NCBI GenBank assembly: GCA_964530625.1
Contig: CAZHAK010000002.1
Span: forward strand, 106,756-170,755
Direction of reading: 5' to 3'
DNA: 64,000 nt
Origin: an uncultured Alphaproteobacteria bacterium
GTDB taxonomy: Bacteria > Electryoneota > RPQS01
Part shown: positions 1-48,865 of the stretch, in pieces
Layout: the number at the start of each line of letters is the position of its first letter
How positions within the stretch are numbered: position 1 is the stretch's first letter
Notes under the pieces: generated by a model
What the model was told of the DNA's origin: nothing
Seen by the model: the letters and a program-made list of their open reading frames with translations, nothing else
Databases searched by the model: none
Translations under genes and position numbers: made by a program

Positions 1-1012
1 AGCACTTGAGAACATGGGTGTGCCGGCTTTTGCGGACTCGCGATTGCGGAATCTGCGGATGATACGCGACTATGCTCCGAAGATGAGTACGTGGTATCTG
101 CGATTGCCACACTTCTCGGCCATTGGGCGGATTGTTTCGATGTCTGAAGTCAGTTTGAACAGCGAGGAAGAGCTCATCGTCGCGTTGAATGCCGAGGCGG
201 CTCGCCAGAACAAGATTCACGGCATCATCGTGATGATTGAAGTCGGTGATTTGCGCGAAGGGATTTTGCCCGGTCACTTGGTTCAGTTTTACGAGAACAT
301 TTTCCAGCTTCCCAATGTCCGGGTGCTGGGTATAGGCGCCAACATCGGGTGCTTGTCGGGTTCGGTTCCGAATCCTGAGCAGTTTATGCAGTTGGCGATG
401 TACCACGAGCTCTTAGAGCTCAAGTTCAAGAAGAAGCTGCCGTTTATCTCCGCAGGAGCATCGAGTGCGTTGCCGCTTTTGCTTGAGGGGGGGTTGCCAG
501 CGGGAATCAACCATTTCAGAATCGGTGAAGCGGTGTTTTTGGGAACGGATTTGGTGCGCGGAGGAATCCTGCCCGGGTTGCGCGGTGACGCGATCACACT
601 TGAGGCGGAAGTCGTAGAAATCAAGGAGAAGAGTTTAATCGCGATGGGCGATACGAGTTTGATCACTCCGTTTGAATCGAGTTTTGAGCAGCCGGACGTG
701 GAAGGCTCGGCCAGCAGAAGGGGGTATCGTGCCATTGTGTCCGTCGGACAATTGGATACGGACGTCGGGGGATTAGTGCCGCGGAATCCGCAATTCAAGA
801 TTGCGGGCGCGTCGAGCGACGTGACGGTTTTGAATGTCGGCGAAGAGGATGCGGGAGTGAGGTTGGGCGACGTCGTGAAATTCGATGTCAACTATTCCGC
901 GCTGGTGAGATTGATGAACAATACTTATACTGACCGTGTGCTGTTGCCGGAAACGGAAGCTGAGAAGAAAGCGGTTGCGCAAACGGAGGCTACGAAGTTA
1001 GCCACAGCGTAG
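1..1012 (+). CDS. alanine/ornithine racemase-family PLP-dependent enzyme, 5'-truncated at window edge
   Basis: ORF open to window start (first Met at 14). Translation shows alanine-racemase-like barrel segment (GIIVMIEVGDLREG) and C-terminal beta domain. Hairpin terminator follows. Confidence 0.5.
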   Translation, partial: ALENMGVPAFADSRLRNLRMIRDYAPKMSTWYLRLPHFSAIGRIVSMSEVSLNSEEELIVALNAEAARQNKIHGIIVMIEVGDLREGILPGHLVQFYENIFQLPNVRVLGIGANIGCLSGSVPNPEQFMQLAMYHELLELKFKKKLPFISAGASSALPLLLEGGLPAGINHFRIGEAVFLGTDLVRGGILPGLRGDAITLEAEVVEIKEKSLIAMGDTSLITPFESSFEQPDVEGSASRRGYRAIVSVGQLDTDVGGLVPRNPQFKIAGASSDVTVLNVGEEDAGVRLGDVVKFDVNYSALVRLMNNTYTDRVLLPETEAEKKAVAQTEATKLATA

Positions 1013-1028
1013 AACATCGAGAATTGAT

Positions 1029-1060
1029 AAAGCCCCGGCCAATTCGGTCGGGGCTTTTTG
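1029..1060 (+). terminator. rho-independent terminator after racemase-family gene
   Basis: AAGCCCCGG..CGGGGCT stem followed by TTTTTG. Confidence 0.6.
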
Positions 1061-2446: not shown

Positions 2447-3472
2447 TCATTTTGGGGTATGAAGGGTACGTCCGACGGCAGGAGCGATGAGTTTCAGACT
2501 TTCCATCATCCCCGATAGTTGTGTGGGGTAGAGGGACTGATAGCCATCGGATAGGGCACGGTCGGGATCGGGGTGCATTTCGACAATCAGCCCGTCAGCG
2601 CCTACCGCAACAGCCGCACGAGCGAGTGGTGAAACCATTTTGCGATGTCCTGTGCCATGGGAAGGATCAACGATGATTGGCAAGTGCGACATGTCTTTGA
2701 CCGCGGGGACAATGTTCAAGTCCAATGTATTGCGGGCGAAGTCTGAGAAGCCGCGGATACCGCGCTCGCACAAGATTACATTATAGTTTCCGGTGGAGAG
2801 AACGTACTCTGCGGCATTTAGGAGTTCATCCAATGACGCTGCGGGACCGCGTTTCAAGAGCACGGGCTTGCCGCTTTTGGCGACGACTTCTAACAGCGAA
2901 TAATTTTGCATGTTGCGCGCGCCGATTTGCAGCACGTCAATATAGGGTAAGGCCAGCACACAGGATTCGTTGTCTACGACTTCGGTGACAACCGGCAGCC
3001 CGAAATCCTTTCCTGCGGCTTGAATCCACTCGAGAGCTTGTTTGCCTAATCCTCGAAATGAATACGGTGACGTGCGGGGCTTGAAGGCTCCGCCGCGCAA
3101 CAGCTGTGCGCCGGAGTTTTTGACCACTTCCGCTGACTTGAAAATTTGTTCGCGGGATTCAATCGAGCATGGTCCGGCGATAATGGCAAGTTCTGCTCCT
3201 CCGACACGCACATCGCCGATTTGCACAATGGTATCTTCGGGTTTTGTTTCGCGCGAAACGAGCTTGAAGGATTTTGTGACGCGCACGGCCTGCACGACGC
3301 CGGGCAACTCTTCGAACTGCGCGGCGGTCAATGGCCCGGAATTTCCTGTGATGCCGATTGCGGTGCGCGACTCGCCGGGGATTTCGTGCCCGCGCAGGCC
3401 AATGGACTCGATATATGAGACGACGTTCTTGATTTGCTCAGTCGTCGCCTCGCGGCTCATGATGATTAACAC
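2447..3472 (-). CDS. aroF: 3-deoxy-7-phosphoheptulonate (DAHP) synthase, type I-beta with N-terminal ACT-like regulatory domain
   Basis: Colinear with Thermotoga/Bacillus-type DAHPS (IAGPCSIESREQ, KPRTSPYSF, GARNMQN, VDPSH). Lies 12 nt downstream of trpA in the same orientation. Confidence 0.8.
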   Translation of the reverse strand: MLIIMSREATTEQIKNVVSYIESIGLRGHEIPGESRTAIGITGNSGPLTAAQFEELPGVVQAVRVTKSFKLVSRETKPEDTIVQIGDVRVGGAELAIIAGPCSIESREQIFKSAEVVKNSGAQLLRGGAFKPRTSPYSFRGLGKQALEWIQAAGKDFGLPVVTEVVDNESCVLALPYIDVLQIGARNMQNYSLLEVVAKSGKPVLLKRGPAASLDELLNAAEYVLSTGNYNVILCERGIRGFSDFARNTLDLNIVPAVKDMSHLPIIVDPSHGTGHRKMVSPLARAAVAVGADGLIVEMHPDPDRALSDGYQSLYPTQLSGMMESLKLIAPAVGRTLHTPK

Positions 3473-3484
3473 GGGCAGTTTCTC

Positions 3485-4297
3485 CTATGCGGAAAGGGGA
3501 TGATCAATGGCATCCCGTAATGACGTGACAAATTCGCGCGTGAATCTTCGCGCATGCTCAAGTGTCTTAGATTCTCCAATGCCGTCCAACAGCGCGCTTC
3601 CGACAATGACACCGTCTGAAACAGAAGCCAGCGTGCGCGCGGACTCTGGTGACGAGACTCCGAATCCCGAGAGAAAGGGAGTGGTGAGTGTAGCTTTCAG
3701 AGCGGATAGGTAACGCTTGACGTCGGGATCCAACGAGGTTCTCGCACCGGTTACTCCGGTAACGGCTACGGCGTAGATGAAGGGCGCATCGAGTAGATCA
3801 ATTTGGGCGATGCGGTCGGCGCTGGACGTCGGCGCAAGAAACGGAACTCGCGGAAGATTCATGTTCTTTGCTTGTGTTTCAATCTCGAGAAACTCGTTGC
3901 TATGCACGGGCCACTCAGGGAGGATGAGTCCGCACAGATTTGCAGTCTTCGCACTTGCGAGAAACTCATGAGTTCCTGTCACGCTGTTTAAGTAACCCAT
4001 GAAAACAGTTGGGCCGAGTGCACTGGCTTGCGCGGCAAGATTGAAGTAATCTTCAGAGGTTAATCCGTTATCGAGGACGAGTTGCGACGCCGCTTGAATC
4101 GTCGGGCCGTCGGCCAGGGGATCAGAGAAGGGCATTCCCAACTCGAGAAAGTCCGCTCCGCCGGCAAAAATTTCTTGACACAGCGAGACGGTCCACTCTC
4201 GCTTGGGAAAACCGCAGGTGAGATAAATCGCGAGCAGCTTCCGTGATTGGCTCTTCGCGTCGCGGATCAACTTGTAAAGATCAGAGGTGCGCGCCAT
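3485..4297 (-). CDS. trpA: tryptophan synthase alpha chain
   Basis: [17 protein letters not shown] motif. Start at Met aligning to E. coli TrpA N-terminus; longer ORF to 4360. Confidence 0.85.
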
Positions 4298-5456
4298 ATG
4301 TCCCCATATCTTTGTCGCCGCGTCCGGAGAGGCAAACGATAGCCGTTTGCCTGAAGCCATCTTCTTTCATTTTGCTGAGGTGCGCTAACGCGTGGGCAGA
4401 TTCGAGCGCGGGGATAATCCCTTCGAGCTTTGCTAGGTCGCGCGCGGCGGTGAGGGCTTCATCATCGCTGACTCGTACATATTTGACGCGGCCACTATCA
4501 AAGAGAAAACTGTGCTCGGGGCCGATGCCGGGATAGTCTAGTCCTGCGGAAATCGAGTGTGCTTCGAGAATTTGTCCATCGTCATTTTGCAATACGTAAC
4601 TGCGTGAACCGTGCAAGACTCCGGGTGTGCCGCGAGTCAACGCTGCGGCATGATGCAGGGAGTGATCGCCTTCGCCTCCGGCTTCTACGCCAATCAATTG
4701 AATGTTTTCATTTACGATGAATGGAAAAAAGAATCCGATAGCATTGCTGCCACCACCTACGCACGCAAGCAACACATGGGGAACGATGCCGCGCTGGCTG
4801 CATTGGTCGCGGGTCTCTTCTCCGATGACTTTTTGAAAATCGCGCACCATCATAGGATAAGGATGCGGTCCGACGACACTGCCGATTAAATAGAAGGTAT
4901 CGCGAACATTCGTTACCCAGTCGCGGATCGCTTCGCTTGTCGCATCTTTCAATGTTTGTGTGCCAGAGGTAACAGGCCGCACGGTTGCGCCGAGCATTTT
5001 CATGCGCGCGACGTTGGGTGCTTGCCGCTCCATATCTTTCGCGCCCATATACACGACGCACTCAAGACCAAAGCGAGCACAGACGGTTGCAGTCGCGACG
5101 CCGTGTTGTCCTGCACCTGTTTCGGCGATGACGCGCGGTTTTCCGGCACGCTTCGCGAGCAGTGCTTGTCCGAGCGCGTTGTTGAGTTTATGCGCGCCGG
5201 TGTGCAAGAGATCTTCGCGCTTCAAGATAACTTGAAAACCCATTGCATCACTTAAGCGTTCGGCGGGATAGAGCGGAGTGGGGCGGCCCGCAAAATCATG
5301 CAAGTGCCATGAAAGTTCCTGATGAAACGACGGATCTACAGCCGCGGAGCGATAGGCTTGCGCAAGCTCTTGACAGGGTGCGACCAATGTTTCGGGAATA
5401 AATTGTCCGCCGTAGGAGCCGAAAAAGCCGTGCTTATCAGGAAAGGAATAGGTCAT
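4281..5456 (-). CDS. trpB: tryptophan synthase beta chain
   Basis: [16 protein letters not shown]-lysine motif, 391 aa. Confidence 0.9.
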
Positions 5457-6040
5457 TATTGAATCTGGCTGCGAACTAAGTACTCAATCTTTATCATTGT
5501 CAGAGGGTCTTTGTGGCGATCATCTCGCTGAATACCGCGAGCGATGTCCACTCCAAAGGGACGGCACTGCTCAATTCGTTCCACAATATTCGTCGGGTCC
5601 AATCCACTTGCGACAATGATGGGTCTGTCGCCGGGCAACTCGTCTTGAATTCCTGTAAAAGCCGGATCGTCAATCATCCAGGCGAAAGCTTTTTGATGCG
5701 GGTAGAGCAAATGCAACTCTGACGAGTCTCTTGTTGCTTTGATGTAGGGTAAGTTAAAGGACTCCGCAAACTCCGCGCTCTCTTGTCCGTGGAATTGGAG
5801 CATGTCGGGGTTAGCAAGGTCGATTCTTTGCTCAACAAACGACGAGTCGGCATCCTGAAAAACCAAAACAAGTTTAGCTTTTCCGCGACGCATCTTTCCG
5901 AGTTTTGACAATTCCGCATCTGAAACGAAACGAGGCGTATCGGGAACGCAGATCAGACCGACCGCATCAATCCCCAGTGCAATGGCAAAACTATAGTCTG
6001 TTGAATTGCAAAAGCCGCAGTATTTTATCCACACACTCAT
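5456..6040 (-). CDS. trpF: phosphoribosylanthranilate isomerase
   Basis: IKYCGF N-terminus, PRAI TIM barrel; 1-nt overlap with trpB. Confidence 0.75.
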
Positions 6041-6801
6041 CGTAACAACTCGGACAGAGTTTTGCCGGGATCGGGTTGCTTCATCATGAAACTGCCGATC
6101 AATACGGCGTTAGCTCCTCGCTTGTGCATTTGGTCTAAATCAGATTTGCTTTGTAACCCACTCTCCGCAACCTTGAGTTCACGCGGCGGCAACAGGGGGA
6201 AAAGGCGAGCGCTGGTGTCTAAATCAATTTGCAAGGTGGTCAGGTTTCGATGATTCACGCCCCATGCAACGCCGGAAAGTCCTTCCGCTTTTTGCAAATC
6301 ATCTTCGTCATGCAATTCAAGAAGCACTTCAAGATTCACGTCAGACGCAAGTTGTCTTAGCTCCAGAAGTTGTTCACGCTCAAGCATTTTTGCAATCAGC
6401 AGAATCGCATCTGCGCCGATTTGCCGGGAGCGCCAGATATCGTATTCGTCAAACAGGAAATCTTTTCGCAGCACGGGCAGGGAGGACAAGTGCTTCGCTC
6501 GTTTGATATTTTCGAGCGCGCCGCCGAAAGAATGTAACTCTGTCAGCACGGACAAGGCTGAAGCGCCTGCGGTTTCGTAGGATGCCGCAATCGCTTCGAC
6601 GTCGTTAAGTTTGCGCAAAACGCCTTCACTGGGTGATTGAAATTTAATCTCGGCTATGACACTCAAGCGATCTTTCGTCAGTGCGCGCAGAAAATCTCGC
6701 GGTGGTTCAATATCTCGGGCGCGTGACTTCAATTCAACGAGCGGTATCGAGATGTCACGAGTGGCACGCCGCTTCTTGAGAATATCTTTCAGAATGCTCA
6801 T
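6037..6801 (-). CDS. trpC: indole-3-glycerol phosphate synthase
   Basis: IAEIKFQSPSEG, LSVLTE motifs. Start trimmed to Met at 6801, making an ATGA overlap with trpD. Confidence 0.8.
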   Translation of the reverse strand: MSILKDILKKRRATRDISIPLVELKSRARDIEPPRDFLRALTKDRLSVIAEIKFQSPSEGVLRKLNDVEAIAASYETAGASALSVLTELHSFGGALENIKRAKHLSSLPVLRKDFLFDEYDIWRSRQIGADAILLIAKMLEREQLLELRQLASDVNLEVLLELHDEDDLQKAEGLSGVAWGVNHRNLTTLQIDLDTSARLFPLLPPRELKVAESGLQSKSDLDQMHKRGANAVLIGSFMMKQPDPGKTLSELLR

Positions 6802-7799
6802 GTCGTGCGCAGGGAATTCAGATATGCCTTGAACGCTCCGCTGGAAACGCATTCGCGGGCGGAAAAGACTGCTGCTTCGAAACAACCTACTCTCTCGGCC
6901 AACATGAGAGCCGGGGCGCAGTTTGCGACAATCCAATCGCGCAACTCGAGTTCCTGCCCGTCCGCGACGGCGAGCAGTCGCTTCGCGTTGTGTTGGTCGT
7001 CGCTCCCTGCAATCGCAGTGCGGTCAACCGGGGATGCGCTCCAGCCCGAGGCGCGCCAAACACCCTCTGAAATGTTGCCGTCGCGGAGCATACAGTAGTG
7101 AGTGTCGCCGTCGAGCGCGATTTCGTCCAAGCCCCCCGCGCCATGCACGGCGATGACAAATTCGGAACCGCTTTGCGCTAAAGTCTCCACCAAGGGTTGC
7201 ATCCACTTGGGATCAAAGACGCCGATGAGTTGCCGCCTAACCCTTGCGGGGTTTGCGAGCGGCCCGAGCAGATTGAAAATTGTGCGGACCTCAAGCTCTT
7301 TACGAACAGACGCGACGCTCTTCATTGCGGAATGAAAATGCGGTGCGAACAGGAAAGCGAAATTGTATTGAGCAAGCGATAGTTCTGCTTCAACCGCAGT
7401 TGCACAGAACGGAATATTGAGCGCGTCCAAGAAATCCGCGCTGCCTGACTTTGACGAGACAGCGCGATTGCCGTGTTTGGCGACCGTGACGCCACAGGCG
7501 GCAGCAAGTAGTGCGGCGGCCGTGGAGAGATTGAAACTATGACTGCCGTCGCCGCCGGTTCCGCACAGATCAACGGTGAGTTTGTCGGTACTCCTCACTC
7601 TGATCATGTGAGCGCGCATAGTGTCGAGAAATCCGGACAGCTCGTCGACCGTTTCACCTCGCGCATGTAATGCGCTTAGCAGCGCACCTATTTCGAGCGG
7701 CGACGAGTCTGCTTGAAAGAGTAACTCACAGGATTTAGCGGCATCTTCGCGCGAAAGTGTGCCCCCGTGTACGACTTGTTTCAAGAAGTCACGCAGCAT
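6798..7799 (-). CDS. trpD: anthranilate phosphoribosyltransferase
   Basis: DLCGTGGDG, KHGNRAVSSKSGSAD motifs. Confidence 0.85.
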   Translation of the reverse strand: MLRDFLKQVVHGGTLSREDAAKSCELLFQADSSPLEIGALLSALHARGETVDELSGFLDTMRAHMIRVRSTDKLTVDLCGTGGDGSHSFNLSTAAALLAAACGVTVAKHGNRAVSSKSGSADFLDALNIPFCATAVEAELSLAQYNFAFLFAPHFHSAMKSVASVRKELEVRTIFNLLGPLANPARVRRQLIGVFDPKWMQPLVETLAQSGSEFVIAVHGAGGLDEIALDGDTHYCMLRDGNISEGVWRASGWSASPVDRTAIAGSDDQHNAKRLLAVADGQELELRDWIVANCAPALMLAERVGCFEAAVFSARECVSSGAFKAYLNSLRTT

Positions 7800-8377
7800 T
7801 ACTTGGCGCTCGCAGTCATAGCCAGAAAATTCGCGAGCAGTTTCTCGCCTTCGGGTGTAAGTATGGATTCGGGATGAAACTGCACTCCTTCTATGGGCAA
7901 TGACTTGTGCCTTATACCCATGATTTCGCCGTCCTGTGTGCGCGACGAAACTTCTAGTTCATCGGGCAAGCCAACTTGTGCGACGATCAACGAATGATAG
8001 CGACCCGCCTCAAACGGATCGGGCAATCCGCGATAAATTGTCCGACCGTCATGAAAAATTTTCGCCGATTTGCCGTGAACCAATGATGGCGCGGCAACGA
8101 CTTTTCCTCCGAAATGTAATCCGATCATTTGATGACCTAAGCATACTCCGAGGATCGGAAGTTTGCCAATCGTCCCCGCGAGAATGTCCGGCATGTTGCC
8201 AGCGTCTTCGGGACGACCGGGGCCGGGGGACAGAATCAGCGCGCGCGGATTTTTGGCAAGCAGCTCGTCGCAGGTGATCTCGTTATTGCGCGCGACTTCG
8301 ACACGTACACCTGTTTTGCCGACGGCTTGCACGAGATTGTAGGTAAAGGAGTCGTAGTTATCGAGGACAAAAATCAT
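7799..8377 (-). CDS. trpG: anthranilate synthase component II (glutamine amidotransferase)
   Basis: GVCLGHQ catalytic Cys, class I GATase. Confidence 0.85.
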   Translation of the reverse strand: MIFVLDNYDSFTYNLVQAVGKTGVRVEVARNNEITCDELLAKNPRALILSPGPGRPEDAGNMPDILAGTIGKLPILGVCLGHQMIGLHFGGKVVAAPSLVHGKSAKIFHDGRTIYRGLPDPFEAGRYHSLIVAQVGLPDELEVSSRTQDGEIMGIRHKSLPIEGVQFHPESILTPEGEKLLANFLAMTASAK

Positions 8378-9738
8378 TTCTGAACTAAGAGCTTCAGCGC
8401 GCGCTCGATTGCGGCGGCCTTGTGTTCGGTTTCTGCGCGCTCGTTTTCCGGAACGCTGTCGGCGACGATACCCGCGCCCGCTTGATAGCTAAAAACTCCA
8501 TCGCGCAAAACAGCAGTACGCAGCATGATGCAGAATTCCGCGTTGCCGTCCGCGCCCAGAAAACCCGCGACTCCCGAATAGAAATCGCGCGGCACGGGCT
8601 CATTCTCGAGAATAATTTCAAGAGCGCGAACTTTGGGCGCGCCGCTGACAGTTCCTGCGGGAAACGAGGCCGCCAGCGCGTCGGTGGCAGTGAAGTCATC
8701 GCGCAGTTTCCCCCGCACGTCGCTGACCATGTGCATGACGTGACTAAAGCGAAGAATAGACCCAAGGTCTTCAACTTTGACGGAGCCGAAATCGCAGGCG
8801 CGCCCGAGATCATTGCGCGCCAAATCCACCAGCATCATGTGCTCCGCACGCTCTTTGGGGTCGGCTCTTAAGTCGCGCTCGAATTGCAGGTCGGCAACGT
8901 CGTCGCTGCCGCGTGGTCTTGTTCCGGCGATGGGATTGATGCGCACTTCGCGGTTCGACACTCCGACGTGCAGCTCCGGAGAGGCTCCGATGAAAGTCCC
9001 GACGGGAGTTTCGTGATAGAACATGAACGGCGATGGATTGACTCTGCGGAGTGCGCGATAGAACTGGAATGCGTCGCCCTTGGCCTCGCGGGTGAATCGC
9101 TGTGACAGCACGCCTTGAAAAATATCGCCCGCGACGATGTGTGATTTGAGTTTTTCGACAGATGATCTGAAATCTACGGGATCAAAACTGCTGGAGCGCG
9201 GCCCGGTTTCAAAGCTACTACGCTGAGAAGCAAGCGGAGCATCCAGAACCCGACTGAGTTCGCGCAGTCTGCTGTCATTTGAGTCGGAAGATTGATCAAT
9301 GAGTTTTAGTTCATGCCGCAAATGATCGAAAATCACAAACTGCTTGTAATTCCCCAGCCATGCGAGCGGTGCGGAACTCTTCTTTGTTTGATCAAGCCGT
9401 TCGAGTTCGTGAATCCAATCAAAACCGATCACACCAATCAACCCGCCGGAGAAGGGCAACGGCTCGGAGGCTGATTCCTTGTGACTGTTCTTCTCGAACT
9501 CGGTCAATAAGTTTCGCAATGAGCCACTTGCGGTGACACCCTGAATATCTGCGCGGGCATGACCGGGCGAATCCGCTGTTATCGCTCCGTCAAAGTCCAG
9601 ACCAATAAAGGAATATCTTCCGAAGCGCTCTCCGCCAGTCGCGCTCTCCATCAGGAACGGAGCACGACCCAGCGACCGCAGCTTCAGAAAAGCGGCGACG
9701 GGAGTGAGCAGATCGGCGGAAAGAGTTTGTATAGTCAT
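8374..9738 (-). CDS. trpE: anthranilate synthase component I
   Basis: Chorismate-binding domain. Start at MTIQTL (9738); the ORF extends to 9762 through the terminator. Confidence 0.85.
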   Translation of the reverse strand: MTIQTLSADLLTPVAAFLKLRSLGRAPFLMESATGGERFGRYSFIGLDFDGAITADSPGHARADIQGVTASGSLRNLLTEFEKNSHKESASEPLPFSGGLIGVIGFDWIHELERLDQTKKSSAPLAWLGNYKQFVIFDHLRHELKLIDQSSDSNDSRLRELSRVLDAPLASQRSSFETGPRSSSFDPVDFRSSVEKLKSHIVAGDIFQGVLSQRFTREAKGDAFQFYRALRRVNPSPFMFYHETPVGTFIGASPELHVGVSNREVRINPIAGTRPRGSDDVADLQFERDLRADPKERAEHMMLVDLARNDLGRACDFGSVKVEDLGSILRFSHVMHMVSDVRGKLRDDFTATDALAASFPAGTVSGAPKVRALEIILENEPVPRDFYSGVAGFLGADGNAEFCIMLRTAVLRDGVFSYQAGAGIVADSVPENERAETEHKAAAIERALKLLVQK

Positions 9739-9745
9739 TAGCAGA

Positions 9746-9775
9746 AACAAAAAACCACGCAAGAGTTATGCGTGG
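9746..9775 (-). terminator. trp attenuator intrinsic terminator (CCACGCA-TAACTCT-TGCGTGG + UUUUUUGUUU), 17 nt upstream of trpE ATG
   Basis: Read from minus strand: 7-bp GC-rich stem, 7-nt loop, then U6GU3. Confidence 0.7.
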
Positions 9776-9804
9776 CAGGTCAAGGGTCAGAGACGTTCAA
9801 TCCG

Positions 9805-9882
9805 TCAGACAATACACTCCTCGACGCTGCCAAGTTGCCAGCGCCAGACCCACGGCGAGGATGTGAAAAAGTGTGACTTCAT
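9805..9882 (-). CDS. trpL: trp operon leader peptide (25 aa, MKSHFFTSSPWVWRWQLGSVEECIV) with three Trp codons
   Basis: Minus-strand ORF ATG 9882 to TGA 9805. Trp codons at positions 11, 13, 15. Sits between the predicted promoter and the attenuator terminator. Confidence 0.65.
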   Translation of the reverse strand: MKSHFFTSSPWVWRWQLGSVEECIV

Positions 9883-9904
9883 GGTGCGATCATCATTATT
9901 CAAC

Positions 9905-9933
9905 AATATAGTTTCGAGTCTGCCGAAAGTCAA
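9905..9933 (-). promoter_or_regulatory. sigma70-like promoter of trp leader/operon (TTGACT-17 nt-TATATT)
   Basis: Hexamers read on minus strand; -10 ends about 20 nt upstream of leader ATG. Confidence 0.5.
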
Positions 9934-10203
9934 GGGTCGGTGTCAAAATTTCCTAATGCCTCCATTTTCCCGACGAAATGCAACTGGCGGGAGAATTCTG
10001 TCGGTCACAATTCAAGACAAACTTATTAAAGGAATCAAAAACAAAGTTTTAGTTATGATGACCCTAACCGAATGTGCAGTTTATACTAACATAGTTAATT
10101 ATGATAGTACTCGAACTTCCTTGACTTCCAATGAGGATGGAAATATATTAGCTATACTGCAACCGAAACGAATTGTTAACATGAAAGGACACGGAGCAGC
10201 CTT

Positions 10204-11856
10204 ATGAAATCGTTTAAATCTATGTTTTTGTGTTTGATGCTGGTGGCGATAAGCGCCAGCACGGCTCAGGCCGCCATAGGCTGGGCTGGCCAGATTTGGC
10301 CGACGAGTGGACAAACCTATTTGCCGACCGATAACATCGGTGTTTATTTGCAAGTTTGGAAGGGCGGGTGTACAGATGCCCCAGGACCGTGTGTGGACGT
10401 CGAGGCATGGCTCTATTACAAGACTTTGAGCGCGGCGAGCTATGACTCGGTACAAATGGTCTTTAACGTACAAATTGGCGCCAACGACGAGTGGACCGCT
10501 ACCATTCCGTCCAGCGCCACAAATGGCGGCGAAGATGAGCTGTTTTACGCTCGTGTGCTTGATTTGTCCGACGGAGTTTGGTACGATGGCGCGCAAGATC
10601 AAGCGAACAACAACCCTCCGTTCACACTTCATATTCAAGACGGCACGTCCCGCGATGTGGACGTTACATTTCGCGTGGACATGAACTGTGTGAATCCTGA
10701 TCTGTTTGCAGGTGGAGTGTTCTTTACGGGTAATTTCCTCGGTTGGAGCACATGCAATCCGTTTGGCGCGATGAGCGATGCTGATAACGACGGCATTTGG
10801 GAAGGCACGTTTACGTTTGCCGGCGGTTCGAACGCGAACATCGAATACAAGTTCCAGCGCAATGATGGCGAGAACTGCAACTGGGAGTGCGGCGGAAACC
10901 GCACGGCGGTGATTGACGACAGCGAGCCAACCCAAACTCTAGACTTGCAGATCTACTGCTGTGAAGTCTGGGGACCGCAGGAAATCTCCGCAGCCGGTTC
11001 GTATTGCGTCAGCCTCTGCTGCTGCTCGAACGAACTGTGGATTCTTTTGAACACTGCTTACAATCCGCCCGTTTTCTCCGACTTTGATTGGGTGAGCGGT
11101 TGTGTGGATTGCGGCAATCCGGATTGCACTCCCGGCAACGGCGATATCATTTATGAGATTCGTCAAGGCGGCGACGGCAACTGGTACCTCGTACTTTGTC
11201 TTGCTCCGGATGCAGGTTTGAATCTTCCTCCGGGCGAAGACGTCTATTCGGGCTGCTTCTGCATTACGATTGACAACATCCTGCCGGTTCAAATGGCTTC
11301 ATTCAGCGCGGTTGGCACGGACAACGCGGTGCGGGTGAATTGGTCAACAGCAACTGAGCAAGCGACGAGTCATTTCGTGCTGGATCGTTCGACGGACATG
11401 TCCAACTGGATCATGGCAACGCAGGTGCAGGCTCGCGGCGAAAGCTCCACGGAGACTCACTACAGCTTCACGGATAACAACGTCGCTGTGGGCACGACCT
11501 ACAACTATCGCTTGACGATTGTGGATATTGACGGCGGCAGCACAGTTCATTCGCAGATTGCCAGTGCCACACCGCGCGATGCGTCTGTCGTGAGTGAATT
11601 CTCGCTTGCGCAAAACTATCCGAATCCGTTCAACCCTGAGACGAACATCAGCTACACGCTGGCGAACGCCGCCAATGTTAGCTTGAAGATCTTCACGGTG
11701 ACGGGTGAGGAAGTGGCGACGCTTGTGGATCGTTCGCAGGAAGCGGGCAGTTTCTCGGTGAGCTTTAATGCTGCTTCGTTGCCGAGCGGAGTGTATTTCT
11801 ATCGTTTGGATGCCGGCAACTTCACGTCAACCCGCAAGATGTTGTTGCTGAAGTAA
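10204..11856 (+). CDS. secreted T9SS cargo protein with CBM20-like starch-binding module, Cys-rich linker, FN3-like domain and type-A T9SS C-terminal sorting domain
   Basis: Signal peptide. VTFRVD...GNFLGWS...IEYKF...WECGGNR pattern. C-terminus ends ...SGVYFYRLDAGNFTSTRKMLLLK. Confidence 0.7.
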   Translation: MKSFKSMFLCLMLVAISASTAQAAIGWAGQIWPTSGQTYLPTDNIGVYLQVWKGGCTDAPGPCVDVEAWLYYKTLSAASYDSVQMVFNVQIGANDEWTATIPSSATNGGEDELFYARVLDLSDGVWYDGAQDQANNNPPFTLHIQDGTSRDVDVTFRVDMNCVNPDLFAGGVFFTGNFLGWSTCNPFGAMSDADNDGIWEGTFTFAGGSNANIEYKFQRNDGENCNWECGGNRTAVIDDSEPTQTLDLQIYCCEVWGPQEISAAGSYCVSLCCCSNELWILLNTAYNPPVFSDFDWVSGCVDCGNPDCTPGNGDIIYEIRQGGDGNWYLVLCLAPDAGLNLPPGEDVYSGCFCITIDNILPVQMASFSAVGTDNAVRVNWSTATEQATSHFVLDRSTDMSNWIMATQVQARGESSTETHYSFTDNNVAVGTTYNYRLTIVDIDGGSTVHSQIASATPRDASVVSEFSLAQNYPNPFNPETNISYTLANAANVSLKIFTVTGEEVATLVDRSQEAGSFSVSFNAASLPSGVYFYRLDAGNFTSTRKMLLLK

Positions 11857-17198: not shown

Positions 17199-18542
17199 TC
17201 ATTTCAACAGCAGCATTTTCCTGGTAAAGACTTGACCTTGTGTTTCAAGTCGGGCAAAATAAACACCGCTGGAAAGACCCCCTCCATCAAATCTTAACTG
17301 ATGCTGTCCACGATTCAGCGAGCGATTTAACAGCGTCGTGACTTCGCGACCACTCACGTCAAAGACTTTGACAACAGCTTGGCCGGCCTGCGCAAGCGCG
17401 AACGCGATGGTTGTTTCGGGATTAAAGGGATTGGGATAGTTCTGATGAAGAATCGCGACCGCAGGAACGGCGGCGGGAGTTTCATCAGTGGACACAGCTT
17501 GCGTAGTCCAGAAGATGACTTGCCCGCTCATAGTGTACACGGGCGGTGTGTGGCCATTGCTATTGTAATTGCAATCGGGGCAGGTAGAGCCCGAAACACA
17601 ATCGGGGTTGGTCGGTCGGCAATGATTTTCAAAAGGCTCCACGATGGGCAGAACATCGAGTAGCCCCCCGGCGGTGACTTCGAGAAACGGTACATCCCAA
17701 GGATAAACACGATCGCCCGGACACCATCCTGCGCGGTTGAATTGCCATGTGCCGCCCTGCGGACTGCATTCGTTGGATCCGCAGTCGTTGCGCCAAAGGA
17801 GGTGATCATAGACATCAAAGCCGATTTGAACGCCGTGAGTTTTTTGCGAGAATTCGGCGGCGTTATGGGTGTTTCCTTGTCCGTGGCCGGTCGTCCATAG
17901 TCTGACGGTTGCGAATTCGGCTTGGGCAGGGACGTTCACGAAATAGAGCTCCAAATGAGCGTCAATCGGGTCCGACGGATCGCCGTATAGTAGCCCGTTG
18001 AAATTGTAAAGTTGCTCAACCGCAATTGGCCTTAGCGGCATCGGGTTCTCGATGAAATAGAACGTGCAGGTGACGAGCCAGCCTTGATTACCTCCAATCC
18101 AGGTGTCACAAAAACTGTGGAGTGTGACTTCTTCGCGCAAAATGGATTGGTAGTCGAGCATGTCGAAGCGCCACTCACAGGAGCCTGGGCGACCGCTGCC
18201 GGTGATGTCATAGGGAGTGATCACCCGGGCAATTTCGATATCCTCGTGGGTAGAGTCGGTCAAGTCTCTTTGGACAAACAAGCGGGCCGTTCGGTCCCAT
18301 GGATCGCAGTCTCCAGGAGGTCCGGGGCATTCCAAACGGTAAATCATGTAGATTTCACCGAATTCAGTCTGCCACGACGGAAATCCAAAGGTTTCGACGT
18401 TGTCGCGACCACCAGCCGCGAAGTTGTGAAGCTCCTGGACGAACGTCGTGACGATGGTTGTGTCGCCGGGATCCGCCTGAGCAGGTAAGAAAAGTGCCAG
18501 GACAAGAATTGGTAGAAGAATGCGCAACATTAGGTTCCTCAT
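17199..18542 (-). CDS. PNGase F-like N-glycanase with T9SS C-terminal sorting domain
   Basis: CDPWDR...ITPY, WTTGHGQG, NRAGWCPG blocks match PNGase F; signal peptide; CTD ends ...SGVYFARLETQGQVFTRKMLLLK. Confidence 0.6.
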   Translation of the reverse strand: MRNLMLRILLPILVLALFLPAQADPGDTTIVTTFVQELHNFAAGGRDNVETFGFPSWQTEFGEIYMIYRLECPGPPGDCDPWDRTARLFVQRDLTDSTHEDIEIARVITPYDITGSGRPGSCEWRFDMLDYQSILREEVTLHSFCDTWIGGNQGWLVTCTFYFIENPMPLRPIAVEQLYNFNGLLYGDPSDPIDAHLELYFVNVPAQAEFATVRLWTTGHGQGNTHNAAEFSQKTHGVQIGFDVYDHLLWRNDCGSNECSPQGGTWQFNRAGWCPGDRVYPWDVPFLEVTAGGLLDVLPIVEPFENHCRPTNPDCVSGSTCPDCNYNSNGHTPPVYTMSGQVIFWTTQAVSTDETPAAVPAVAILHQNYPNPFNPETTIAFALAQAGQAVVKVFDVSGREVTTLLNRSLNRGQHQLRFDGGGLSSGVYFARLETQGQVFTRKMLLLK

Positions 18543-48403: not shown

Positions 48404-48417
48404 TTAGAATTGTTTGC

Positions 48418-48860
48418 GGTTCGCCGGGTGATCGCGGTTGACTTCGGTCAATCGAGGAAAGTCCGAACTTCATAGAGCAGAGCGCCGGCTAACGGCCGGG
48501 TGTGGTGACGCAACGGAAAGTGCCACAGAAAATATACCGCCGGGGGAAAGTCAGAAATCTGAAGTCAGAAGTCAGAATGCAGAGTCTGCTTACTTCATAC
48601 TTCATACTTCATATTTCATACTTCTGACTTTTCTCCGGTAAGGGTGAAATGGTGCGGTAAGAGCGCACCGCGCATTCAGTAATGGATGTGGCAGGGAAAA
48701 CCCCGCTCGAAGCAAGGCCAAGTATGTCGGGAGTCTTTGCTGCTCGCAAAGCTAAAGTCCCGGCGGGTAGGCCGCCCGAGGTGATGAGTAATCATCATCC
48801 CAGATAGATGATCACCCCTCTGGCAACGGAGGACAGAATTCGGCTTATAGGCGAACCCAC
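48418..48860 (+). ncRNA. rnpB: RNase P RNA, bacterial type A, with expanded P12
   Basis: GAGGAAAGTCCG (P4), GGTAAGGGTGAAATGGTGCGGTAAGAGCGCACCGC, ACAGAATTCGGCTTAT. P1 pairing GGTTCGCC/GGCGAACC. P3 hairpin GTTGACttcgGTCAATC. Confidence 0.8.
48546..48633 (+). repeat. heptamer-tandem-repeat palindromic element inside rnpB P12 (GAAGTCA x2 ... ACTTCAT x5)
   Basis: Tandem 7-mers; arms GAAAGTCAGAA/TTCTGACTTTTC close the helix. Confidence 0.5.
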
Positions 48861-48865
48861 AATTT

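Follow-up and report, generated by a model that had tools for sequence, protein, structure and literature searches.

The interval ahead of trpE in a 64 kb stretch of DNA from an uncultured bacterium (contig CAZHAK010000002.1, positions 106,756 to 170,755; hereafter the window) raises the question of how this organism adjusts the transcription of its tryptophan genes to the supply of tryptophan (Trp). A promoter, a short open reading frame (ORF) with closely spaced Trp codons and a hairpin followed by a run of U lie there one after the other and, like the trp operon that they precede, are read on the minus strand. Judged from the sequence and from modelled folds, it is very probable that this element is a ribosome-mediated leader-peptide transcription attenuator of a trpEGDCFBA-DAHP synthase operon, which would sense the supply of charged tRNA-Trp.

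Anatomy of the trp leader

Sequence reading and a promoter scan agree on a -35 hexamer TTGACT at 9928..9933 and a -10 hexamer TATATT at 9905..9910 (both minus strand), which with their 17 nt spacer hold 10 of 12 consensus positions; no promoter-like site scores higher in the first 14 kb, where this one shares the top place. From the geometry of the promoter, transcription would start near 9898 and leave a 5' untranslated region (UTR) of about 16 nt. The leader ORF then runs on the minus strand from 9882 to 9805, encoding the peptide MKSHFFTSSPWVWRWQLGSVEECIV in 25 codons followed by a TGA stop (9807..9805); no Shine-Dalgarno motif was found upstream of its ATG. Its Trp codons W11, W13 and W15 lie at 9838..9852 on the minus strand (UGG GUC UGG CGC UGG; individually 9852-50, 9846-44 and 9840-38), a density that stands out in a census of the small ORFs on either strand of the 64 kb that start with ATG and span 10-45 codons, as among these 719 it alone has at least three Trp in five codons, and it directly precedes trpE.

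An intrinsic terminator (9745..9776, minus strand) starts 28 nt past the leader stop codon. It consists of an 8 bp stem with the arms GCCACGCA (9776..9769) and UGCGUGGU (9761..9754) around the loop UAACUCU, followed by a U6GU3 tract (9754..9745), and the 3' end of the hairpin is 15-16 nt from the trpE ATG (9738). An earlier, sequence-only reading of this DNA had placed the TTGACT-17-TATATT promoter, the leader, the hairpin with U6GU3 and trpE in this order on the minus strand and had counted three Trp codons in five positions of a 25-codon leader, all of which stands. Its hairpin about 30 nt past the stop is likewise there, although the exact distance is 28 nt, and its figure of 17 nt between the hairpin end and trpE was wrong, the trpE start having been put 2 nt off.

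Simple terminator patterns are not rare in this DNA, with 22 found across the scan and 18.2 expected, and therefore the weight of the argument rests on the combination of the elements and on their conservation. That the leader is no artefact of assembly follows from three loci on two other public contigs (one from a Logan assembly and one from a Joint Genome Institute (JGI) metagenome), in which the 225 nt leader region is identical base for base.

Alternative RNA structures in the window

Folds of sub-sequences, from which all energies given here are taken, divide the leader into segments that pair in competing ways. Region 1 (9836..9845, minus strand) overlaps the codons for W13 and W15 and would be the 5' strand of a 1:2 anti-antiterminator hairpin of the pause type, for which RNAfold gives -10.9 to -12.5 kcal/mol and which is also present in the minimum free energy (MFE) fold of the whole leader. 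Region 2, UGGCAGCGUCGAGG (9819..9832, minus strand), lies within the leader ORF past the Trp codons and has region 1 and region 3 as its alternative partners. Region 3, CCUUGACCUGCCA (9773..9785, minus strand), is the 3' strand of the antiterminator in folds constrained to mimic the stalled state, and its last four nucleotides, GCCA (9776..9773), are also the outer part of the 5' arm of the terminator.

The 2:3 pairing that could not be resolved by eye in the sequence-only reading is thus UGGCAGCGUCGAGG with CCUUGACCUGCCA, a helix of 13 bp arranged as 6 + 7 around one bulged C, in a domain of -25.8 kcal/mol, as compared with -12.7 kcal/mol for the 3:4 terminator. Folding had been suggested as the check for mutually exclusive structures, and these are found in so far as the antiterminator shares GCCA with the terminator, the overlap being a partial one of four of the eight terminator pairs. 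What remains of the terminator once 2:3 has formed is a hairpin of 5 bp and -4.8 kcal/mol, which stands two nucleotides away from the U run.

Complementarity between regions 2 and 3 is above chance, the duplex reaching -23.7 kcal/mol when shuffled sequences average -12.6 (z = -3.6, p = 0.001). The fold of the leader as a whole differs little from its shuffles (z = -0.22), which is uninformative because a switch contains structures that compete with one another. When a stalled ribosome was modelled by masking the nucleotides under its footprint, an A site on W11 or W13 lowered the probability of the three terminator pairs beside the U tract from 0.83-0.99 to 0.01-0.34; for a ribosome placed on the stop codon, these pairs had probabilities of 0.74-1.0.

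Conservation and covariation in relatives

Relatives were sought in JGI metagenomes and in a genome set with a single representative for each GTDB species, where close relatives of this TrpE proved to be very few. Seven close loci, all from uncultured organisms, were usable, namely L001-L006, all from metagenome-assembled genomes (MAGs) and with TrpE 57-79% identical, and L082 (74%); L081 and L083 were left out as they have no upstream sequence. All seven carry a promoter of the form TTGAC[TA]-17-TAT[ACT][ACT]T at the matching place, a leader ORF of 25-29 codons in which Trp is encoded 2-4 times (among them MMTHLTTSMTWVWRWQIDSVVDGIV, MKSYTSTTLSDQTWWWRATRVAECSV and MFKNENCKSLWVWWWRLPRVGVNSA) and, ahead of trpE, a terminator hairpin CCACGC...GCGUGG followed by U6, whose distance to trpE varies from roughly 15 to 70 nt. 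Across the eight loci, the window included, the TGA stop of the leader falls in a single alignment column and the UGG at columns 13-15 is invariant. The N-terminal half of the peptide varies freely, with nucleotide conservation starting at the Trp codons, and this fits a device made of RNA and ribosome better than it fits a functional peptide.

Region 2 of the relatives holds, inside the ORF, a copy of the 3' arm of the terminator (GCGUGG plus one nucleotide). The copy in the window has degraded to GCGUCG, which interrupts the register used by the relatives, so that the window uses the shifted 13 bp helix instead. The 2:3 duplex beats 1000 shuffles of region 2 at every one of the eight loci (p from 0.000 to 0.026, mean z -2.9).

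On an alignment of the natural sequences made with MAFFT (A1), RNAalifold recovered the terminator only, because the 5' arm was misaligned in L004-L006. Pairs were hence counted on an edited, in-register alignment (A2) that leaves out the variable spacer lying between leader stop and region 3, and on which, with structures derived from those same sequences, 95% of terminator cells are paired (20-53% with the partner slid) and 83% of those in the antiterminator core (25-59% with the partner slid). The outermost terminator pair, columns 68-90, occurs as C-G three times, A-U twice, G-U twice and G-C once, and the antiterminator pair of columns 38-68 as G-C three times, U-A twice, C-G once and U-G once. 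Column 68, in the 5' arm of the terminator, is thus G, A or C and covaries with both of its alternative partners; such double covariation is the signature expected of a switch and, as far as the aligned sequences go, would point to one here.

In the relatives the modelled switch between Trp stall and stop codon is clear in L001-L004, partial in L005 and weak in L006. The probability of the terminator stem under a Trp stall is 0.00-0.10 in L001-L003 and 0.01-0.39 in L004, and with the ribosome at the stop it is at least 0.94 in L001, L003, L004 and L005. The 1:2 hairpin is visible in the folds of several relatives, in a register that differs between loci. Taken together, the 2:3 antiterminator, the leader ORF, Trp codons and terminator kept in 7/7 relatives, the shuffles beaten at 8/8 loci and the covarying column 68 support the E. 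coli-type attenuation architecture that had been proposed from the letters of the window; the alignment of orthologues that had been suggested alongside it upholds both the Trp codons and the hairpin in all seven relatives, with one terminator pair that covaries.

Three further observations concern the 5' end of the transcript and its promoter. Within the 5' UTR of the window there is a mini-ORF, AUG AUG AUC GCA CCA UGA (9878..9895, minus strand), whose stop overlaps the leader start as AUGA and which is not kept in the relatives. The in-frame leader ATG of L082 (about 1346) and of L004 (about 2257) is just 7-8 nt past the -10 hexamer, and the mRNA of the leader peptide may be leaderless at these two loci. 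Finally, the promoter spacer of the window contains an inverted repeat (9911..9930, minus strand), TTTCG...CGAAA, which has counterparts in L001 (TTCGG...CCGAA) and L002 (TTTC...GAAA), is absent in L082 and is unrecognisable in L003-L006; it is a weak candidate for the operator of an added repressor control.

Proposed mechanism

In the attenuator that we propose, a sigma-70-type promoter would fire and a ribosome would translate the 25-codon leader. Were Trp scarce, its A site would stall on codon 11 or 13, covering region 1 and leaving region 2 (9832..9819) free to pair with region 3 (9785..9773) once the latter has been transcribed. The resulting 13 bp antiterminator would sequester GCCA, the stretch of the terminator 5' arm that pairs right beside the U tract, and as the residual 5 bp hairpin would lie off the U run RNA polymerase would continue into trpE. 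Were Trp plentiful, the ribosome would reach the UGA, unwind region 2 and occupy the loop between regions 2 and 3, upon which the full terminator could form and transcription would end ahead of trpE. If the leader is not translated at all, an early 1:2 hairpin would hold region 2, also favouring termination. Termination, read-through, the coupling of transcription to translation and the response to Trp are what we infer from these structures.

Several points weigh against this mechanism. Its basis is computational throughout, and translation of the leader is deduced from conservation of the frame alone, because there is no Shine-Dalgarno motif to mark it. A stall at W15 brings about no antitermination in the footprint model, as the ribosome then covers part of region 2. 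Furthermore the antiterminator of the window overlaps just four of the eight terminator pairs, and the inner five pairs persist at equilibrium, so that antitermination here presupposes, in line with the general behaviour of intrinsic terminators, that a weak stem of 5 bp detached from its U tract would fail to terminate. Before arm 4 has been made, the MFE fold of the ribosome-free leader already has 2:3 and not 1:2, which means that termination in the untranslated state must rely on the kinetics of folding. Comparison of the relatives lends no support of its own to the shifted 2:3 register of the window, and the covariation consists of one variable pair in eight sequences that are partly related to one another, all other stem positions being invariant and hence uninformative. 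Modelled switching is moreover weak or ambiguous in L006, and the stop-codon state of L002 reaches just 0.56.

Alternative explanations

The same elements could be read in other ways, the most serious of which takes the hairpin, 16-38 nt upstream of the trpE ATG, mainly as a hindrance to ribosome loading on trpE that translation of the leader remodels, or lets the leader ORF act by way of Rho-dependent polarity. The 3' arm of the hairpin and the U tract do end only 6-15 nt short of the trpE ATG, and trpE and the leader alike are without a Shine-Dalgarno motif, even a loose 4-mer match being found at just 8 of 23 gene starts. A purely translational switch would however need no conserved U tract, and what is kept at all eight loci is a canonical intrinsic terminator, in the window an 8 bp GC-rich stem with U6GU3; the variable spacing of hairpin and trpE (roughly 15 to 70 nt) also argues against the occlusion of a fixed start site. 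We therefore regard this explanation as improbable. Less probable still is a signal read chiefly by a protein or a tRNA, be it a TRAP-like protein, uncharged tRNA-Trp in the manner of a T-box, or a TrpR-like repressor, beside which the small ORF would be incidental. The inverted repeat that the window shares with L001 and L002 within the promoter spacer could be the operator of such a repressor, and dual control of the E. coli kind would agree with this. That repeat is missing in L082 and cannot be recognised in L003-L006, which speaks against this explanation. Neither would an incidental ORF be expected to keep its Trp codons, its frame and the position of its stop while its peptide drifts. 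A TRAP-controlled leader was rejected, since its transcript would need 9-11 (G/U)AG repeats spaced by 2-3 nt and the leader transcript contains just two GAG triplets, and so was a T-box leader (RF00230), there being no match to this or any other Rfam family at E up to 10.

Chance remains, by which an unrelated small ORF would happen to lie beside a hairpin that acts as an ordinary terminator or insulator, without any regulatory switch. Terminator-like hairpins being about as common in this DNA as in shuffled sequence, and the whole-leader fold being no more stable than its shuffles, both features speak for it. It has to contend, however, with a Trp density seen in 1 of 719 small ORFs and placed exactly ahead of trpE, with an architecture kept whole in all seven relatives, with 2:3 complementarity above that of shuffles at all eight loci and with a neighbouring gene that is divergent, so that no upstream gene on the same strand is there to be terminated; we give coincidence next to no credence. 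Attenuation by way of the leader peptide is what these lines of evidence favour.

The trp operon and its neighbourhood

First among the genes that the leader would regulate is trpE (8374..9738, minus strand), which encodes component I of anthranilate synthase, a protein of 454 aa with the Pfam domains PF00425 and PF04715. The 454 aa TrpE that begins at the ATG at 9738 is recorded in the protein collection, with its gene on public contigs, and no exact match was returned on look-up of a version beginning one codon earlier. Downstream on the same strand Pfam identifies trpG, trpD, trpC, trpF, trpB, trpA and a DAHP synthase gene (2447..8377 in all, the last at 2447..3472), which overlap or sit no more than 12 nt apart. 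That the operon carries a DAHP synthase had been stated from the sequence alone and is confirmed by the PF00793 and PF18152 domains of the gene 12 nt downstream of trpA. Further along, at 1029..1057, a GC-rich palindromic hairpin of 12 bp has an A run on one side and a T run on the other (AAAGCCCCGGCC...GGTCGGGGCTTT). It resembles a terminator that works in both directions, and the minus-strand transcription unit that begins at the trp promoter may end there.

On its other side the leader is bordered by a divergent gene (10204..11856, plus strand) with the Por_Secre_tail sorting domain of the type IX secretion system (T9SS), and the minus strand has no upstream gene that the hairpin could terminate. 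A second TTGACT-17-TATATT site, the same as the trp promoter in hexamers and spacing, faces this T9SS-cargo gene at 10121..10149 (plus strand). The divergent pair of trpE and T9SS-cargo gene is kept in L001, L002, L003 and L082. In L002 tblastn finds the cargo homologue in two abutting parts, one of residues 1-355 and one of residues 356-550 (at about 966..968), a split that points to a frameshift, which is probably due to an indel error of long-read assembly.

The host lineage

The source is a wastewater bacterium whose TrpE was found on 25 contigs and is listed in 45 assembly-index blocks. The window encodes two proteins with Por_Secre_tail, its gene starts seldom have even a loose Shine-Dalgarno-like motif (8 of 23), and the nearest TrpE beyond the clade, from Ignavibacteriaceae and Anaerolineales loci, is about 44% identical; together these features point to a lineage of the Fibrobacteres-Chlorobi-Bacteroidetes type and not to the Proteobacteria. 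Four of the related loci (L001 and L004-L006) are labelled 'uncultured Alphaproteobacteria', and this label is doubtful, because L001 has, adjoining trpE, a Por_Secre_tail cargo homologue that is 72% identical to that of the window.

Two other features of the window deserve mention. The second T9SS-cargo protein (17199..18542, minus strand) combines PNGase F-like N-glycanase domains with Por_Secre_tail. The RNase P RNA (class A, 307.8 bits; 48416..48863, plus strand) has an insertion of about 85 nt (about 48548..48626) in place of a short hairpin loop of the model, and this insertion is built of short tandem units, GUCAGAA-like repeats being followed by CUUCAUA-like ones.

Significance

The leader is real and conserved, but it is an ordinary case of a textbook mode of Trp sensing, which raises no question of long standing and is nothing that specialists would find surprising. 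What is new is that its family is absent from Rfam and comes from an uncultured lineage, and a wastewater organism met with in many public assemblies gains a regulatory annotation of its trp operon. Conserved ribosome-mediated attenuators would furthermore be a sign that uncultured lineages poor in Shine-Dalgarno motifs couple transcription to translation, which is a modest but useful inference.

A more ambitious interpretation, which we think unlikely, would make of the leader an uncatalogued attenuator family of an uncultured T9SS lineage, in which one strand of the antiterminator repeats the terminator 3' arm almost exactly (GCGUGGN) within the coding frame of the leader; the copy in the window would have decayed, and a new antiterminator would have arisen in a shifted register, pairing with sequence that precedes the terminator. 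If true, the decayed GCGUGGN copy and the rebuilt register would be a case of structural turnover in a riboregulatory switch with its function kept, and, along with the Trp-leader ORFs of other phyla, genomic evidence for tight coupling of transcription and translation in lineages poor in Shine-Dalgarno motifs.

Comparison with known systems

The closest parallel in mechanism is E. coli trpL (RF00513), as described by the Yanofsky model. Both have a promoter first, then a short leader ORF whose Trp codons lie close together, then an intrinsic terminator and trpE; four segments can pair as 1:2, 2:3 and 3:4, and in the window as in E. coli a Trp stall would free segment 2; and the genes of the whole pathway are arranged trpE-G-D-C-F-B-A. 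Homology of sequence or structure is however undetectable, with no match to RF00513 at E up to 10, and there are differences of detail. The leader of the window has 25 codons where that of E. coli has 14, its Trp residues are spaced W-x-W-x-W and not in tandem, and its stop lies 12 nt past segment 2, in the antiterminator loop, whereas in E. coli it lies between segments 1 and 2. The window furthermore lacks a Shine-Dalgarno motif, and its operon has a DAHP synthase gene appended.

Rfam as a whole recognises little in this DNA. At the gathering threshold the entire window yields only the RNase P RNA and one tRNA, and with E up to 10 the interval 9650..10050 yields only a spurious 14 nt match, with neither RF00513 nor the Bacteroid-trp family RF01692; the trp-leader search in Rfam that had been suggested with the sequence-only reading thus came back empty, although E. 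coli trpL as positive control scored 93.1 bits for RF00513 (gathering threshold 41 bits), a control that covered RF00513 only. Nineteen related and distant loci were equally without a match at the gathering threshold, RF01692 included.

Bacteroid-trp (RF01692) is a Trp peptide leader upstream of trpB or trpE in Bacteroidetes, according to the account of this motif by Weinberg et al. 2010 (PMC2864571). It and the window leader are both computational predictions and, going by that account, share at least two conserved UGG codons and a hairpin before trpE or trpB, as well as an origin in a T9SS-bearing phylum (PMC2864571). Its authors, in their description of the motif, call it a loosely conserved hairpin, whereas the window allows the full set of 1:2, 2:3 and 3:4 structures with covariation (PMC2864571). 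The promoter of the window, for its part, is of the sigma-70 type (TTGACT/TATATT).

Tandem Trp codons mark the actinobacterial Trp leaders of Corynebacterium glutamicum and Streptomyces venezuelae, and in this respect these resemble L003-L005 more than they do the window. The likeness to the window lies in a Trp-codon leader peptide and a terminator before trpE outside the Proteobacteria, in a different phylum. Attenuation by a Trp leader has experimental support, with a Trp-dependent response, in C. glutamicum and S. venezuelae, in work that is cited in PMC4833913.

In Sinorhizobium meliloti a ribosome-dependent attenuator before trpE(G), alike in this to that of the window, yields a small peptide together with a short RNA that ends at the terminator (PMC6614838, PMC7298713), and the liberated RNA (rnTrpL) and 14 aa peptide (peTrpL) function in trans (PMC6614838, PMC7298713). 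By analogy it is a possibility that the RNA or peptide released in the window's organism would act in trans as well; the N-terminal half of the peptide, being unconserved among the relatives, speaks against a function of the peptide such as that in S. meliloti.

Similar ribosome-dependent attenuators have been called widespread (PMC6614838). At distant trpE loci of several groups, leader ORFs rich in Trp (WW to WWW) proved to lie ahead of strong intrinsic terminators, and Rfam recognises none of them at the gathering threshold. They include loci labelled Ignavibacteriaceae (L007, leader ...FGWWWS...), a Bacteroidota MAG (L019), Balneolaceae (L026, leader ...TWWWP...), Planctomycetota (L025), Brevinematales (L024 and L043) and other groups (L080/L155, L137 and L100). 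A leader ORF with WWWW was also seen at L070, where no terminator passed the filter. The sequence-only reading had held an attenuator of this kind to be unexpected in a T9SS-bearing lineage, on the premise that such lineages mostly have other or unknown trp controls; the Trp leader that PMC2864571 describes for Bacteroidetes, the actinobacterial cases to which PMC4833913 refers and the trpE loci of several phyla found here contradict this, and it would seem that leader-peptide attenuation ahead of trpE is common well outside the Proteobacteria.

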